Positions 1 through 4,942 of a stretch of 12,246 nucleotides of DNA are shown one piece after another; within the stretch, counting starts at the first letter, position 1; each line of letters opens with the position of its first letter. Under the pieces are notes generated by a model. That model was not told the origin of the DNA. It saw only the letters and a program-made list of their open reading frames with translations, and ran no database searches. Position numbers and translations under genes: made by a program. The stretch is from a virus (taxonomy: Duplodnaviria; Heunggongvirae; Uroviricota; Caudoviricetes), in IMG/VR virus record IMGVR_UViG_2695420793_000011, one strand, 5' to 3'.

Positions 1-220
1 AGAGACGCACGCGATAGCGTCCGTCCGGTACGATTTGCAGGTTGTCCAGTTCGGCAAGTTGTTGCTCTCCAAGCCAGACAGGTGGCACGTTATCGCCAGC
101 CAGTCGCCCGTCCTGTTCCTGCCACTGTTTCGCATGTGCCCACGCATCACTACCCGCAAAAATGATGACTTCCGTCATTTTGTCACGCGGCTGGTGTTTT
201 AAATTTGGCGCTTTTTTCAT
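1..220 (-). CDS. hypothetical protein, N-terminal 73 codons only; gene continues beyond window start
   Basis: Minus-strand ATG at 220-218 opens a frame reading MKKAPNLKHQPRDKMTEVIIFAGSDAWAHAKQWQEQDGRLAGDNVPPVWLGEQQLAELDNLQ... with E. coli-like codons and no stop before the window edge. The ATG overlaps the TGA stop of the upstream 99-aa ORF (ATGA), suggesting translational coupling. Not in the ORF track because it is open-ended. Function unknown. Confidence 0.45.
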   Translation of the reverse strand, partial: MKKAPNLKHQPRDKMTEVIIFAGSDAWAHAKQWQEQDGRLAGDNVPPVWLGEQQLAELDNLQIVPDGRYRVRL

Positions 221-516
221 TTCTGCTCTCTCCACGCGGCAATCATGTTTTTTAGTTCCTGTAGTTTTTTATCAACATCCATACATGACACATGGTTATT
301 TCTGGAAAGCGGGATTTCCCGCCTGAATCTGCTAATAAAGATCTCCACGTTCAGCGAACTAAGAAATGAATAGCCATCACGGATAAAATACACACGGTCA
401 AACATCAGTTCTTTTACCGTTACTCTGTTACCGTTCTTATCCAGATAAATAGCGCCGGGGATAATTTGGGGGTGTGCATAACCGCTGGCAGTCAAGCCAG
501 ATAAATACGTTCTCAT
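217..516 (-). CDS. hypothetical protein (99 aa), member of leftward small-gene operon
   Basis: ORF-track frame. It is in the same frame as the upstream 106-aa ORF, separated only by a TAA stop and two codons, and its stop overlaps the next start (ATGA). No family recognised. Confidence 0.5.
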   Translation of the reverse strand: MRTYLSGLTASGYAHPQIIPGAIYLDKNGNRVTVKELMFDRVYFIRDGYSFLSSLNVEIFISRFRREIPLSRNNHVSCMDVDKKLQELKNMIAAWREQK

Positions 517-522
517 GATTAT

Positions 523-843
523 TTATCCCCGATTTGAATCAGTATTCGCTTTCTTTATAGCATTTAATGCATCTGTGGCATTTTCAATGGTGCACCGTAA
601 CGAAATATCAAAATGTCCAAGCATTGCCAGTAACAAACCGATATTACCCATATCAATGCGCATGGCCTTTTCGTCATAGTCCTCATTTTCTGACGCATGC
701 CACATCAGGCTACCAATTGACGCAACAGCCATTGATATATTGTCAGTAGCCCCATCCGCAGCGGAATAAATCTTTTTAGCAATATCATGCTCACAGTTAA
801 AATGCGGATTAATCAGGTACTGGTAATTTGACATATCAGGCAT
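523..843 (-). CDS. hypothetical protein (106 aa), member of leftward small-gene operon
   Basis: ORF-track frame. Its ATG at 843-841 overlaps the stop of the upstream 67-aa frame (ATGCCTGA). No family recognised. Confidence 0.5.
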   Translation of the reverse strand: MPDMSNYQYLINPHFNCEHDIAKKIYSAADGATDNISMAVASIGSLMWHASENEDYDEKAMRIDMGNIGLLLAMLGHFDISLRCTIENATDALNAIKKANTDSNRG

Positions 844-1039
844 GGCACACCCCCTGACGAATACGGGCGGCGAATACCATCACGCAGCCAGCCGGGGATT
901 GCTGGCGTGCTTCCTGTTCGCTGGTGGCCACGATGTGAATCACGCGCGGTTGTGCGGTGCTCAGGGCGATAAAACGCCAGATGTATTTATTCAGGTTGTA
1001 CGAGTCCCGCCCTTGCGGGTGTATGGTATGATTTCTCAT
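836..1039 (-). CDS. hypothetical small protein (67 aa, MRNHTIHPQGRDSYNLNKYIWRF...), probable first gene of leftward operon
   Basis: This is the 3' portion of the 362-aa minus-strand track ORF. An internal ATG at 1039-1037 is preceded by GAGG about 8 nt upstream. The longer upstream extension runs through the AT-rich promoter region and antisense to better plus-strand genes. An alternative start at about 1132 is possible. Confidence 0.35.
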   Translation of the reverse strand: MRNHTIHPQGRDSYNLNKYIWRFIALSTAQPRVIHIVATSEQEARQQSPAGCVMVFAARIRQGVCHA

Positions 1040-1235
1040 AGCTGCCTCGATAATCTTGCTATCGTTGGTGGTTAGAAGCCCCGTTACTGCTCCTACAGTG
1101 CGGGGTTTCGTCGTTTCTGCACCTTGCATTAACAAGGTGTAAGTAACTTTATTTATAGGTGGCTTACATGTCAATGCTTTTATGTAAGACTTTTTATGTG
1201 TATATTGTCTTACACTTTCATTGAGAGGATTACAG
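1040..1235. promoter_or_regulatory. divergent promoter/operator region between the leftward small-gene operon and the rightward regulator-like genes
   Basis: AT-rich intergenic stretch with repeated TGTAAG(A/T)/CTTACA elements, including an inverted pair GTAAGAC...GTCTTAC around 1180-1215 and TTACATGTCAA at about 1164-1176. A short GC stem (CCCCG...CGGGG) at about 1080-1107 lies in the leftward leader. Confidence 0.45.
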
Positions 1236-1541
1236 ATGGCTACAGGTTCAAAAAACGCAAAATCACAATCACTGACAGCTCGGATCCCGCATGATGTTAT
1301 TGAAGGCATGGAATCCGTAAAACTGGACGGTGAAAGCAACGCCGGATTCATAGTAACCGCCATGCGCGGTGAAATCGCCCGCCGCCAGGCAGAAGGAAGC
1401 GGAGAAAACCTCCTGGTTTCTTCGCTCGATGCCCTAGCGCAGGTGGAAAAAATCGGAGTCAAAGCCGCCGAGGAGATCGGGCAACTCGTCACCGTCGCGC
1501 GTGAAGAACTCCAGCGACGCAAGGTCAAAGAGCAGGAATAG
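1236..1541 (+). CDS. small acidic protein, putative DNA-binding regulator of the island (family not confirmed)
   Basis: ATG at 1236 is preceded by GAGAGG at 1224-1229. Codon usage is E. coli-like and a strong intrinsic terminator follows the transcription unit. The N-terminal segment SLTARIPHDVIEGMESV is reminiscent of ribbon-helix-helix-type regulators, but this is an impression only. The track's longer start at 1221 lacks an SD. Confidence 0.5.
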   Translation: MATGSKNAKSQSLTARIPHDVIEGMESVKLDGESNAGFIVTAMRGEIARRQAEGSGENLLVSSLDALAQVEKIGVKAAEEIGQLVTVAREELQRRKVKEQE

Positions 1542-1598
1542 CCACTATCAGCGCCATAGTTTGAGGAACGCAGGCGCATTGCTTTACAGGACAGCACC

Positions 1599-1778
1599 AT
1601 GAGCGACACAGAATCAACCAAAACACCATCACCAACTCGTAAGAGACGACGCAAAAATATAGCGCATGAACATGAATCAGAAAGATTCGCACCTTGTTCG
1701 TTTGCTCTTGAGAAATTCCTTAAAGAGCACAGGAAAAAGCTCTCGTTGCAAACCTTGGAACGAACCAAATCTGACTGA
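1599..1778 (+). CDS. possible small basic protein (59 aa, MSDTESTKTPSPTRKRRRKNIAHEHESERF...)
   Basis: Found by manual translation; below the ORF-track size cutoff. It lies between the 1236-1541 gene and the plus-strand terminator. Weak SD and rare codons (AGA, CGA, AGG, ATA) make it uncertain. Confidence 0.25.
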   Translation: MSDTESTKTPSPTRKRRRKNIAHEHESERFAPCSFALEKFLKEHRKKLSLQTLERTKSD

Positions 1779-1845
1779 TCACATTGCCCACCAGCCGCAA
1801 ATGTGGCATTGTTGGCGATGCGTTCAAGTTTAGTGTGTATCCATT

Positions 1846-1877
1846 GGCGACCGCCCCCGGTCGCCTTTGTTTTATAT
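1846..1877 (+). terminator. intrinsic terminator for the rightward island transcription unit
   Basis: Perfect 8-bp GC-rich stem GGCGACCG / CGGTCGCC with CCCC loop (1846-1865), followed by TTTGTTTTATAT. Confidence 0.6.
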
Positions 1878-1892
1878 GTCATATGCTCCCCT

Positions 1893-2117
1893 TTACGCTG
1901 CCTTACCTGAATTAACGCGGTCACGGCTTTGCACCCAGTCCATAACTTCGGAAAGCAACCAGCCTACAGAACGCCCCCCAAGATTACGGCGAGACGGAAA
2001 GCCCCCTTTCTTCTCCAGTTCGTAGCGTGTAGTACGGCTGACGCCTGTTAACTTACGACATTCATCCTCACGAATTACGCGATCTGTTAGTGATTGAAAT
2101 TGTGTATTTTGATTCAT
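1893..2117 (-). CDS. alpA: AlpA-family phage/island transcriptional regulator (excisionase-like HTH)
   Basis: 74-aa translation with segment LTGVSRTTRYELEKKGGFPSRRNLGGRSVGWLLSEVMDWVQSR, matching the AlpA/Xis-type motif (GxSRsTiY...G.FP....lG.R.v.W...ev..W). Position downstream of a P4-type integrase is typical. Confidence 0.7.
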   Translation of the reverse strand: MNQNTQFQSLTDRVIREDECRKLTGVSRTTRYELEKKGGFPSRRNLGGRSVGWLLSEVMDWVQSRDRVNSGKAA

Positions 2118-2220
2118 AAAAACACCCTCGAACGTAACCGAACAAGGGCATCTTATTTACCATAGCAGTTGGTGCAATATTGGAAAAATAAACTTTATTC
2201 TAATTTATCGTTCTCCATGA

Positions 2221-3075
2221 TTAATTTTCATTAGATAAAATTTTTCTTATTTTTTCTAAAGAATCGCTGCGCATTATTTTTTCTAAGAAGGGTTTTACAG
2301 TCTGAACAATAGCAAAGGTGTCCTTTTCACCATCAGGATACAAAGATACGGCAAGCACCCCTAATGAAATTTTTCTATCTGTAGACAACTCCCAAGATAA
2401 TAAGTCAATTAATGGGATTATCTTATAATCAATAATTTTACGTCGTATGCTCTCCCAACTTCCTGCAATTGGTTTGTCTGGCTCAACAATTGAAAGTTCA
2501 CTACGCCATTTTGGTAATAGTTTTGTAAACGCTTCAATCAACTCATCATCTCTGTTATGTAGTAAGTCAACAGAAACAAGCATATTATCTAATGTATCAG
2601 AAAGGAGATTCACTGGTTCACGCATCACAGCCCAAAACATCCCATTATCTTCTGATATTAAACTTCCAACCATCTCATTATCTATGATGATTGGTTTATC
2701 CTTCCAATATCCTCTTTCCGCAGTCAGTTTATTAATCATTGATATATCAAACCTTGTTACAGGTTTAATTCCATCATCATAACTTAGCTCAATTAACTTC
2801 GGTTGCACTTTATGGTCATATTCTTTTTGTTTATCACAAAACCAATCGTCTTCTTTCAGCTCTCCAAATGGATCCCCGTAATTATTATGCAACGGGTATT
2901 CAGCACCAAACATAAATCCATATTCAGGCATCTCAGAATGTTTCATTGTTAAATCATCTTGTCGCCAATATAATTGGCGAAATAGATCTTTATCCGACAA
3001 GTTTTCTAGGCAATCATATTTGCCTAAATCAAATGACTTTGGTAAATCTTTTTTACTATTTACTTTTTTCGTCAT
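2221..3075 (-). CDS. hypothetical cytoplasmic protein (284 aa), AT-rich cargo gene between integrase and alpA; function unknown
   Basis: Long uninterrupted frame in visibly AT-rich DNA. Its ATG at 3075-3073 overlaps the integrase TGA stop at 3074-3072 (ATGA). No transmembrane segment or catalytic motif recognised by eye. Confidence 0.65.
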   Translation of the reverse strand: MTKKVNSKKDLPKSFDLGKYDCLENLSDKDLFRQLYWRQDDLTMKHSEMPEYGFMFGAEYPLHNNYGDPFGELKEDDWFCDKQKEYDHKVQPKLIELSYDDGIKPVTRFDISMINKLTAERGYWKDKPIIIDNEMVGSLISEDNGMFWAVMREPVNLLSDTLDNMLVSVDLLHNRDDELIEAFTKLLPKWRSELSIVEPDKPIAGSWESIRRKIIDYKIIPLIDLLSWELSTDRKISLGVLAVSLYPDGEKDTFAIVQTVKPFLEKIMRSDSLEKIRKILSNEN

Positions 3076-4292
3076 TGTATCCCTCTCAATATCACAATAT
3101 TTTCATTATATCCTGCAATCATATCAAGACGCTCAACCCATAGATTCAGTGCGTCCCGTTTCGCCTGCAAATAGCGTGAATGGTTATAGGTTTTTTGCTG
3201 ACCTGGCATCTGATGCGCTGTGATGTGCTCCACGATATGCGGATCGACACCTAAATCATTCAGCATAGTTGTAAACGTGTGTCGGAAATCATGCAGCGTC
3301 CAGTGTTCCTGCTTAAGCCGCTTATGCGCATTTCGTCCATATTGCGCCACCGTGGTATCTTTTTTCAGTTCGCCGAGTAATAACCCAGTGTGTGCGTTTT
3401 GCTCCACCAGCTTCTGAATGAACGGCAAAATACCATCAGGAATAGGTCGGAATATTGTTACCTTCGTTTTGCTGTGCTCTTTTGGCACTGTCCACAACAT
3501 TTCTTTCAGGTCCCATTCTTTGATCTCTGAAAGTCTGATCTCTGCCGTTCTGCACCCGAACACAATTAACAAGCGCATTAACGCACTGTAATAGGGAGCG
3601 AACACATCACCATCAATAGCGCGTAGAATTTCTTTTAGTTCGCTGTTGCTGTGCACTCTCTCGCGGATTTCTGCTCTCTTACCCACATCAGTAACGATCA
3701 AATCGTCCAGGGCGTTGCTAAACGCGTAGCGCCGCCTGCGGCAAAACTTTAGCGCCTGTTTGCATGTCTGCATGACATGGCCCGCTGCTACTGGTGCTTT
3801 TTTTCGTACGCGGTCAAAACATGCGATCCACTGCCTTGTATCACACTTATCAAGGGGAATTGCCCCAATATGGCAAATGATGTGCTTATCCATACGCTGC
3901 ACCAGCTTTATGTAATCTTTGCGGTTATCCTTCGCGTATTCCTCCAGCCAGTAGTTAATCGCTTCCTTCACCGTAACGGGTTTTAGTGCTTCCTGTACTG
4001 TGGCGCACAACTCATAACGGGGGTTTTTACCCTCAGCCAGCCATGCCCGGCACAGTGTGCGTTTTTCCCTTGCGGCTTTCAGCGACAATTCAGGGTAAGC
4101 CCCCAGCTTTAACCGCTCTGCGGCAACCTCACGGCCTCCCGTTCGGTACCGGAAATACCAGGTTAATTTGCCGCCCTTTGAGTGTTTAATCTCCAGCCCG
4201 CCCCCGTCGGAGTAAAAACGCTCTTTTTCTGCCTGGACAGCCGCCAATTTTTTTAACGTCGAATCGCTCAGTTTGTTTAGTGCTTTTCCCAC
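3072..4292 (-). CDS. int: P4-type tyrosine site-specific integrase
   Basis: 406 aa. The N-terminal arm-binding-type region (DGGGLEIKHSKGGKLTWYFRYRTGGREVAAERLKLGAYPELSLKAAREKR) resembles P4/CP4-57 integrases. The C-terminus has the HxxR box (HDFRHTF) and a candidate catalytic Tyr (KTYNHSRY). GTG start at 4292 with AGAGGA about 9 nt upstream. Confidence 0.85.
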   Translation of the reverse strand: MGKALNKLSDSTLKKLAAVQAEKERFYSDGGGLEIKHSKGGKLTWYFRYRTGGREVAAERLKLGAYPELSLKAAREKRTLCRAWLAEGKNPRYELCATVQEALKPVTVKEAINYWLEEYAKDNRKDYIKLVQRMDKHIICHIGAIPLDKCDTRQWIACFDRVRKKAPVAAGHVMQTCKQALKFCRRRRYAFSNALDDLIVTDVGKRAEIRERVHSNSELKEILRAIDGDVFAPYYSALMRLLIVFGCRTAEIRLSEIKEWDLKEMLWTVPKEHSKTKVTIFRPIPDGILPFIQKLVEQNAHTGLLLGELKKDTTVAQYGRNAHKRLKQEHWTLHDFRHTFTTMLNDLGVDPHIVEHITAHQMPGQQKTYNHSRYLQAKRDALNLWVERLDMIAGYNENIVILRGIQ

Positions 4293-4328
4293 TATCAGAT
4301 CCTCTTTTCAGTCCTCCAGCCTCAAAAA

Positions 4329-4352
4329 ACTGACCACACAACTGACCACACA
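4329..4352. repeat. tandem direct repeat (A)CTGACCACACA x2 immediately upstream of int
   Basis: Two 11-bp units CTGACCACACA at 4330-4340 and 4342-4352, 12-bp period. Followed at 4369-4386 by CGAACAAC x2 with 10-bp period, within an ACAA-rich tract. Confidence 0.5.
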
Positions 4353-4480
4353 TTTTGTTGAAGCTCTACGAACAACGACGAACAACAACAAACAAGAAAA
4401 CAGGATAATTTATTGTTTATCAAATACATACATAAACAACCACAAGCAACCCCGAACCACAAAAAACACTAAATGAGAAA

Positions 4481-4540
4481 ATACGGGTATTTCTCAGCCT
4501 TCACGCAGAAGGGCACCCCGAGTCGTTTGGTTGCGATGAT
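4481..4540 (-). ncRNA. 5' portion of the thiM TPP (thiamine pyrophosphate) riboswitch aptamer, truncated at the island junction
   Basis: The minus strand reads AACCAAACGACTCGGGGTGCCCTTCTGCGTGAAGGCTGAGAAATACCCGTAT, matching from memory the 5' half of the E. coli thiM leader including the conserved CUGAGA element. After ACCCGUAU the expected CACCUGAUCUGGAUAAUGCCAGCG is replaced by unrelated sequence running into int. Confidence 0.65.
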
Positions 4541-4621
4541 AAATCGCAGAGGAGGATGGTAATGTCCAGCGCACGCGTTGTAAACGAGGAAAAACGGCAG
4601 TTTTACAATCGCGTTAATAAA

Positions 4622-4894
4622 TTATTTGATATATGAATCCAGCACCTTCAGAACGACATCCAGATCTTCTTCACGTTTTAGCTCATCCCCCTGGTGAACG
4701 ATGTGTTCCGTCAGATGACCTTTAATCACTTCCCGTATCAGACCGTTTACCGCGCCACGGATAGCAGCAATCTGTTGTAAAACTGCAGCGCATTCGTGCG
4801 GCTCGTCGAGCATTTTCTTGAGCGCCACGACCTGGCCCTGAATCTTACTGGCACGCGCTTTCAGTTTCTGTTTATCACGGATTGTATGAGACAT
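4622..4894 (-). CDS. rcnR: RcnR, Ni/Co-responsive transcriptional repressor (CsoR/RcnR family)
   Basis: 90-aa translation recognised as RcnR ([52 protein letters not shown]...), divergent from rcnA. Confidence 0.9.
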
Positions 4895-4942
4895 GGCAAC
4901 ACCTGGTTAACAAGAATATGAAAAATCATAGCACTATTAATC

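Follow-up and report, generated by a model that had tools for sequence, protein, structure and literature searches.

Gene content of the int-alpA region

The DNA analysed here, which we call the window, is a stretch of 12,246 nucleotides from the IMG/VR virus record IMGVR_UViG_2695420793_000011. On its minus strand it carries, in co-oriented succession, a tyrosine integrase gene (int, 3072-4292), a gene for a protein of 284 amino acids (2221-3075) and alpA (1893-2117). The integrase contains Arm-DNA-bind_3 and Phage_integrase domains according to Pfam and PHROG matches and RefSeq annotation, and alpA, the master activator/excisionase gene of Gram-negative PICIs (PMC6092414, PMC10803314), was assigned to the Phage_AlpA family (Pfam PF05930, E = 4.8e-16). 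The gene that occupies the slot between them is already represented in RefSeq, where its product is entered as WP_060614944.1 under the name 'DUF6387 family protein'. Its ATG start codon (3075-3073) overlaps the TGA stop codon of int (3074-3072), so that the sequence at 3072-3075 on the minus strand reads ATGA.

The DUF6387 gene has a GC content of 33.5% and is more AT-rich than both of its neighbours (0.335 versus 0.483 for int and 0.484 for alpA), with GC fractions at third codon positions of 0.27, 0.52 and 0.41 for the DUF6387 gene, int and alpA, respectively. The encoded protein is acidic and soluble (pI 4.97, GRAVY -0.5), and no hydrophobic segment was found in it, the maximum Kyte-Doolittle value over 19 residues being 0.91. 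An earlier sequence-only reading of this DNA had described the open reading frame, its overlap with the int stop codon, its AT-richness and the character of its product in the same terms, and all of these points were confirmed. In two moderately diverged pairs of related DUF6387 genes we obtained dN/dS values of 0.06-0.20, and because of these values the gene is judged to be a functional coding gene under purifying selection. Conservation and dN/dS likewise led us to reject the notion that 2221-3075 is a spurious open reading frame. A promoter scan returned three sites, including one weak sigma-70-like site at 3127-3099, just upstream of the DUF6387 gene; since this is fewer than the 7.2 sites expected by chance, we claim no internal promoter.

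Positions 1-4900 of the window are 100% identical to the chromosome of Escherichia coli strain Ecol_224, in which the island is inserted between thiM and rcnR. In this genome the order is int, DUF6387, alpA, a divergent YlcI/YnfO gene, an Icd-like gene, a hypothetical gene, DUF4222 and a DNA primase gene with iterons just past it, followed by a ClpP-protease/major-capsid fusion, DUF1441 and a final hypothetical gene. Within the window, the YlcI/YnfO family gene (1236-1541, plus strand; NCBIfam NF041551 and RefSeq) diverges from the alpA operon and marks the regulatory or 'Bro' zone. Three genes on the minus strand form the satellite early region at 217-1039, namely the Icd-like gene (836-1039), the hypothetical gene (523-843) and DUF4222 (217-516), as assigned from the RefSeq annotation of the identical region together with Pfam and PHROG matches. 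The primase gene begins near position 220 and continues beyond the left edge of the window. A repeat search identified the attL-side copy of a 70-nt direct repeat at 4326-4395; its partner adjoins thiM, outside the window, and in the numbering of locus L001 the two copies lie at 13949-14018 and 24326-24395, are 94% identical and are separated by 10,377 bp from start to start. Co-oriented int, alpA and primase genes, a size in the range of about 10-15 kb, direct repeats, a capsid-related late gene and the absence of tail and lysis genes all agree with a PICI-type element, and the layout matches the published four-zone organisation of Gram-negative PICIs with Integration, Bro, Replication and Late zones (PMC10111431; also PMC6092414). 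Judged by its gene content, the host element is thus a 10.4-kb Gram-negative PICI-type phage satellite.

In addition, a terminator-like hairpin followed by a T-run that ends at the alpA ATG occupies positions 2118-2156 on the minus strand, as indicated by its fold z-score and an alignment of relatives. This region of the window folds with z = -2.6, and the only GAGG Shine-Dalgarno-like sequence lies within the 3' arm of the hairpin. A GC-rich hairpin with an A-rich run before it and a T-run after it, abutting the alpA ATG, was present in all islands with an occupied slot that we checked, and an alignment of 12 sequences gave a consensus stem of 13 bp with compensatory changes at 6 pairs. A simple terminator scan did not call the hairpin, probably because of an internal TT/TT mismatch, and Rfam returned no RNA family, whether the gathering threshold or E<=1 was applied. 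The hairpin likely marks the 3' end of an int-DUF6387 transcript and may also act as an insulator or leader for alpA. This terminator reading fits the model proposed for the PICMI satellites of Vibrio, in which int and the gene overlapping it are constitutive and alpA is induced by phage (PMC10803314). Co-transcription with int, which had been considered probable from the window, is therefore plausible, given that the ATGA overlap is kept even by unrelated occupants and that the hairpin follows the slot gene.

The DUF6387 family and its linkage to alpA

The sequence-only reading had regarded the protein as an orphan with no recognisable motif, and this proved wrong. The target protein matches Pfam PF19924 (DUF6387) over its full length (model positions 2-252 of 258) with E = 4.7e-31 and 108.7 bits against a gathering cut-off of 28.9, and an exhaustive profile search found 1,247 representatives of 50%-identity clusters that match DUF6387 at E<=1e-3. 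A word-indexed search returned 57 homologues of the target protein, 57/57 of which carry PF19924, and a scan of genome contigs yielded only five loci. Seeding a homologue search with the distant family member P0113 gave no match except itself. NCBIfam contained no match for the target protein, and in PHROGs it matches only an unknown-function family.

Of the HMM and structure-based searches that had been proposed, the former led to the Pfam family, and the latter returned no match in the PDB or among viral structures. The AlphaFold2 model of the target is mostly helical (mean pLDDT 85.7), and Foldseek comparison of this model with the PDB and BFVD gave no match at E<=0.001, the similarities to winged-helix domains being weak. 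A profile search of PDB sequences with DUF6387 also gave no match, and when the family was examined for features of excisionases or recombination directionality factors (Phage_AlpA, HTH_17, Xis), no winged-helix or MerR-like HTH was recognised by sequence or structure. In a comparison of 143 diverse members, conservation was seen at residues 5-40 and 165-270, with a hypervariable, indel-rich stretch at 41-160; the only near-invariant positions are R38, R191, D224 and several aromatic residues. We saw no catalytic signature, effector motif or partner gene. A crude estimate of dN/dS for the middle region (0.06-0.21) showed no sign of positive selection, and one locus (L015) carries two DUF6387 paralogues in tandem. 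Every DUF6387 gene that we examined has a GC content of 32-40% and adjoins int and alpA genes at 46-55%. The low GC of the target gene had been taken to suggest separate acquisition, but it is a trait of the whole family and hence not specific evidence, and we reject it as proof of recent acquisition.

What distinguishes the family is its position. In every readable context, of which about 20 are independent, DUF6387 immediately precedes alpA on the same strand. Enterobacterial satellites of Klebsiella, Salmonella, Yersinia, Enterobacter, Winslowiella, Tenebrionibacter and Buttiauxella share one layout, in which int overlaps DUF6387 by 4 nt and approximately 75-145 bp separate DUF6387 from alpA; the overlap was read as ATGA in the Klebsiella, Salmonella, Yersinia, Enterobacter and Buttiauxella loci. 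Downstream of the DUF6387-alpA pair, these satellites differ in their replication modules (D5-type primase, AAA_25 or DUF927) and in their capsid modules (gpE/gpD-like, ClpP-MCP fusion or a full HK97-type set), and their attachment sites are different too. The order DUF6387 then alpA is also kept in marine Gammaproteobacteria, at L115 (next to smpB), L118 (Psychrosphaera) and L119. At the latter two loci other small genes lie between int and DUF6387, and the gene that overlaps int at L119 is a different one, of 152 aa; the gene downstream of DUF6387 at L119 is only weakly AlpA-like (BLASTP E 2e-5 to the L115 AlpA, no Pfam match).

The pairing also holds in two published mobilisable islands in which int lies elsewhere. 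In ICEKp258.2 (PMC10763509, Table 1), DUF6387 and alpA are found at the end opposite int, and in a Serratia island they precede recombinase genes, with int downstream (PMC9964261). The phage and plasmid collections contained only two DUF6387 matches each; of the plasmid matches, one adjoins an integrase in a record of 17 kb and the second is partial, on a 310-kb plasmid; among all contexts read, including those from these collections, no DUF6387 gene was seen away from the position upstream of alpA. In a pair of related Yersinia loci, dS was 0.33 for DUF6387 and 0.20 for alpA, far below the value of 1.12 for int, and DUF6387 and alpA have therefore travelled together in that pair. Strict synteny of the kind seen between DUF6387 and alpA is not a feature of ordinary cargo.

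Exchange of occupants in the int-alpA slot

Islands whose integrases are 95-97% identical carry the 284-aa DUF6387 gene, a 331-aa DUF6387 gene whose product is 30% identical to the target, an unrelated 239-aa gene or nothing between int and alpA. Among IMG/VR contigs with at least 95% Int identity, the target gene was found in six loci, the 331-aa DUF6387 gene and the 239-aa gene in one locus each, and one locus had a gap of 409 bp with no ORF of at least 60 aa. In a wider sample of Int relatives from IMG/VR, the slot was empty in 71/80 related loci (no ORF of at least 60 aa; gap of 200-420 bp). The proposal that the int-alpA interval is a slot for accessory cargo was thus borne out, and the survey of related islands suggested with it revealed variable content: far from holding the same gene in all of them, the position differs between near-identical integrase lineages and is mostly vacant.

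Strain UMNF18 has an island at the same thiM-rcnR site with a closely related Int (903/935 bits) and a near-identical AlpA, and there the 239-aa gene fills the slot, again overlapping the int stop codon by 4 nt. A 257-aa relative of this gene, located at the cspD site, overlaps int by 4 nt as well. No Pfam domain was found in this second family, whose members combine an HTH-like N-terminus and a conserved C-terminus with a middle part that varies. We considered it as a remote homologue of DUF6387 and rejected this, hhalign giving a probability of 0.1-0.2% with single sequences and with a 21-sequence profile. The sequence of the hairpin and repeat upstream of alpA does not co-vary with the family of the occupant.

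Among 5,426 complete E. coli genomes, 1,260 matched a query spanning int to alpA (1893-4292), mostly through a related int. DUF6387 was present in only 55 genomes, 50 of which have the target allele (at least 99% identity); the remaining five encode a 70%-identical DUF6387 protein in cf-PICIs at the fis site. Relatedness of Int and of DUF6387 is decoupled, with Int at 97% accompanying DUF6387 at 30% and Int at about 55% accompanying DUF6387 at 70%, which shows, at the level of these comparisons, that DUF6387 is exchanged as a cassette between islands. For the satellite family as a whole, DUF6387 is dispensable.

Candidate functions of the slot gene

The closest described counterpart of this arrangement is the class of integrase-overlapping genes (iolg) of the Vibrio PICMI satellites (Barcia-Cruz et al., PMC10803314), which lie between int and alpA and overlap the int stop codon by 1, 4 or 13 nt, ATGA being the most frequent form. 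Among 35 PICMI subfamilies, 21 have an iolg, four have a contiguous gene (icg) and three have none, and the iolg occupants belong to 13 unrelated families (PMC10803314). In PICMI115, deletion of iolg abolished excision, packaging and transduction, and the authors ask how AlpA, Int and 'probably IOLG' interact (PMC10803314). Complementation was achieved only with int and iolg together (PMC10803314), and a polar effect of the deletion on int is possible for this reason. The DUF6387 gene shares with iolg both the same-strand position between int and alpA and the ATGA overlap, and its slot likewise exchanges unrelated families and is left without a gene in some elements. The likeness to the IOLG of PICMI115 that is drawn here is one of position and overlap. 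The host elements differ as well, the DUF6387 gene residing in E. coli, in a larger PICI-type island that has a capsid gene and probably temperate helper phages, and unlike iolg, DUF6387 is separated from int by small genes in the two marine loci mentioned above. Scans seeded with the PICMI115 AlpA brought up no PICMI115-like locus, giving no viral-contig match and six metagenome loci with only 36-54% AlpA identity, none with DUF6387. By analogy, DUF6387 resembles these Vibrio genes more than any known anti-phage gene.

We tentatively favour an explanation, with a probability of a little under 0.4, in which DUF6387 would be an accessory of the AlpA/Int excision module that is co-expressed with int. 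It would be the enterobacterial counterpart of the iolg class and a non-enzymatic factor in integration or excision, a role that we infer from the analogy with PICMI115 and not from homology. Translation of the protein would occur on the int mRNA by way of the ATGA overlap and, because of this, it would be made constitutively during quiescence of the island; the transcript would probably end at the hairpin just before alpA. Once a helper phage switches alpA on, DUF6387 may assist or gate AlpA/Int-dependent excision. Such a role in excision or induction would account for the alpA linkage as well as the int coupling, and PICMI115 provides an experimental precedent for it.

In favour of an excision role, DUF6387 stands directly before alpA in every context examined, even in islands with int far away or downstream, and the conserved ATGA overlap, the conserved hairpin, the dN/dS values of 0.06-0.20 and the joint travel of DUF6387 and alpA in the Yersinia pair point in the same direction. 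The family was also not found off such elements and has no catalytic signature. Against it, near-identical Int and AlpA proteins work with a 30%-identical DUF6387, with a member of an unrelated family or with nothing, which fits badly with the idea that DUF6387 is an obligate part of the excision complex. The slot is empty in most related satellites, and the phenotype of the iolg deletion in PICMI115 may be polar on int.

A single-gene anti-phage or anti-satellite defence or interference function, with the gene expressed constitutively alongside int in the integrated island, is in our judgement somewhat unlikely, although it comes next to the excision role. On this reading, DUF6387 would protect the host and the helper by binding a component of a competing phage, with the hypervariable middle setting specificity. 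The slot is hotspot-like in its unrelated or absent occupants and in the decoupling of DUF6387 from int, and like the loci of known systems it varies among close relatives. The family-wide AT-richness, the conserved ends around an indel-rich segment at residues 41-160 and the tandem paralogues at L015 would also suit a defence gene. PICIs reportedly have antiviral hotspots, described by Fillol-Salom et al. in Cell in 2022. Defence hotspots are likewise carried by P4-like satellites (Rousset et al. 2022, PMC9122126), and up2 of PICMI115, another gene that had no known function, turned out to act in defence (PMC10803314). The int-alpA slot resembles such hotspots in being a variable locus beside the integrase with conserved core flanks and a turnover of AT-rich cargo, but it differs from them in holding single, same-strand genes coupled to int, none of which matches a known defence system.

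Indeed, the target had no family match in PADLOC-DB 2.0 at E<=1, the alternative occupants had no meaningful PADLOC match, and neither fold, PDB nor viral structure comparisons nor any effector or enzymatic motif pointed to defence. DUF6387 is confined to one position, just upstream of alpA, which is unusual for defence genes. Recognisable defence-like genes of sister islands occupy other slots and the opposite strand, namely an AbiJ-like protein at the 3' end of Klebsiella islands (PADLOC E 8e-21) and, in E. coli SCU-123, a HEPN protein located between primase and capsid. The PICMI defence systems known so far similarly have their hotspot between prim and fis and are not placed in the int-alpA interval (PMC10803314). 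The sequence-only reading had put forward this gene as the best candidate for an anti-phage or abortive infection function and had named a core role in the island as an argument against it. Positive evidence for defence was found neither in PADLOC nor in fold or PDB comparisons, and the reported need for iolg in PICMI115 excision (PMC10803314) touches on such a core role. The picture of an orphan defence gene that had been proposed is not borne out. If DUF6387 were nonetheless a true defence protein, it would represent a new single-gene system with an unrecognised fold.

A role outside both excision and defence, for instance in host physiology, satellite competition or anti-defence, or as a selfish hitch-hiker linked to int, appears unlikely. 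Dispensability at the family level, the lack of functional clues in sequence and structure, and the presence of genes without assigned function in the same interval of other elements (YfjH in CP4-57 and the small EcCIMP1_002 gene) are compatible with it. It fits poorly with purifying selection on DUF6387, and the family's very broad occurrence, with synteny that does not vary, points to a function linked to the element.

Distinctly improbable, in our view, is that the slot protein serves as a helper-phage sensor or specificity factor that couples infection by a particular helper to alpA activation or excision, acting for example on the leader hairpin, a promoter or Int, with a variable middle that recognises a phage protein in the manner of the divergent Stl repressors of SaPIs. 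Strict adjacency to alpA and the variable middle between conserved ends would be expected of such a factor, the 239-/257-aa family with its HTH-like N-terminus has a comparable architecture, and weak structural matches connect DUF6387 to winged-helix domains. Moreover, the mechanism by which helpers turn on alpA in Gram-negative PICIs has been stated to be unknown (PMC6092414, PMC10803314). Most related islands have an empty slot, though, and characterised PICIs without a slot gene appear, from PMC6092414, to be helper-induced all the same. A confident DNA-binding domain was not found in DUF6387, the hairpin and repeat sequence upstream of alpA does not follow the occupant family, and the crude dN/dS test of the middle region gave no sign of positive selection.

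A broader version of this idea, which we hold to be just as improbable, would make DUF6387 and the families that replace it modular gatekeepers of satellite induction that decide which helper phages trigger excision. Docking on Int, AlpA, att DNA or the leader hairpin of alpA would fall to the conserved N- and C-terminal parts, and the hypervariable middle would recognise a protein of particular helper phages. Such gatekeeping would account for the iolg requirement reported in PICMI excision, and if true, the slot proteins would correspond in function, on the Gram-negative side, to the diverse Stl sensors of SaPIs.

The presence of DUF6387 in Pfam and RefSeq is already known, and a class of int-overlapping satellite genes has been published for Vibrio. 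Three observations appear to be new: that DUF6387 fills the int-overlapping slot in enterobacterial PICIs and cf-PICIs, that its linkage to alpA is strict in satellites and mobilisable islands alike, and that E. coli harbours a natural series of occupants. The two papers that name DUF6387 do not mention its position upstream of alpA or a role in a satellite slot. The same int-overlapping slot as in PICMIs thus exists in E. coli PICIs, and a family of approximately 1,250 clusters at 50% identity fills it from Enterobacterales to marine Gammaproteobacteria. The slot matters for the question of how phage satellites of Gram-negative bacteria detect their helper and build an excision complex. The thiM-rcnR site holds either the target gene or the unrelated 239-aa gene, and lineages with 95-97% Int identity also include a distant DUF6387 or an empty slot; with this natural allelic series in E. 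coli, the question is directly testable in a tractable host.

Finally, intervals next to the integrase are occupied in other elements too. The archetypal alpA element, CP4-57 of E. coli K-12, has the order intA-yfjH-alpA, and YfjH resembles DUF6387 in this position but its gene lies on the opposite strand; we rejected it as a DUF6387 homologue, with an hhalign probability of 0.8% and no Pfam DUF6387 match. EcCIMP1 carries a small unrelated gene, EcCIMP1_002, in its int-alpA interval. The positional equivalent in SaPIs, from integrase to master regulator, is the int-stl interval, which holds virulence or other accessory genes (PMC6092414); in contrast to DUF6387, the occupants in these Gram-positive islands are unrelated to it in sequence and uncoupled from int.

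Occupants of the int-alpA interval

In sister islands, the interval between int and alpA that holds the DUF6387 gene in the window carries alternative occupants of 239 aa (L020 12318-13037, minus strand; the UMNF18 island at thiM-rcnR) and 257 aa (L021 12316-13089, minus strand; the cspD site), which form a family of their own. The family has no Pfam domain; the N-terminus of its members is HTH-like (MKLPKRLYYPLPEAAEKLGC...), the middle is hypervariable, and the last 74 aa are 100% identical across islands whose integrases differ. The label of orphan suits this family better than the DUF6387 target gene, to which the sequence-only reading had applied it. On one metagenomic contig, the interval contains two DUF6387 paralogues in tandem, of 307 and 276 aa (L015 8001-9741), which share 38% identity. 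The intA-alpA interval of CP4-57 in E. coli K-12, the archetypal alpA element, holds yfjH (318 aa; L117 5145-6101), which lies on the opposite strand and is unrelated to DUF6387.

A conserved hairpin upstream of alpA

A hairpin followed by a T-run lies at 2118-2156 of the window, on the minus strand, and is conserved in loci L002-L024, L031, L040 and L045. In all occupied-slot islands checked, the hairpin and T-run end exactly at the alpA start codon. The consensus stem comprises 13 bp, with compensatory changes at 6 pairs, and the sole GAGG Shine-Dalgarno-like sequence sits in the 3' arm. This element could serve to control alpA, whether as terminator, attenuator or translational leader.

Repeats, tandem satellites and further variable slots

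The island boundaries are marked by a pair of 70-nt direct repeats, 94% identical (window 4326-4395 and 13949-14018 of L001, a locus spanning the whole island), which are unusually long, exceeding the usual att core length; no tRNA gene is involved at these repeats. Outside the window, a second pair of direct repeats (80 nt, 91% identical; L001 15398-15477 and 17934-18013) sits either side of the island's ClpP-protease/capsid fusion gene. A single Klebsiella genome carries a tandem pair of complete satellites of the same type (L008 1-19021), the second of which opens with int-DUF6387-alpA.

Defence-like genes in sister islands occupy further variable slots. These include a HEPN-domain protein between the primase and capsid genes of E. 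coli SCU-123 (L023 4205-4918, plus strand) and, in islands of Klebsiella, an Abi_C/AbiJ-like protein at the 3' end (L009 18630-19394, minus strand; PADLOC E 7.7e-21). The primase-capsid gap of the window's own island holds just one 57-aa ORF.

An overlapping ORF and the right end of the window

The mechanical ORF list includes a 362-aa ORF at 836-1924 on the minus strand, overlapping the opposite-strand YlcI/YnfO gene. This ORF is probably spurious, since the RefSeq annotation covers just its 3' portion (836-1039), as an Icd-like protein. At the right end, a gene for an IS1 transposase (DDE_Tnp_IS1 in Pfam, E 4e-71) and the adjoining yehE span 11612-12230. The 5' end of yehE is missing (DUF2574, model positions 17-93 of 93) and the gene is intact in Ecol_224, the best-matching genome, indicating that the window derives from a different strain.
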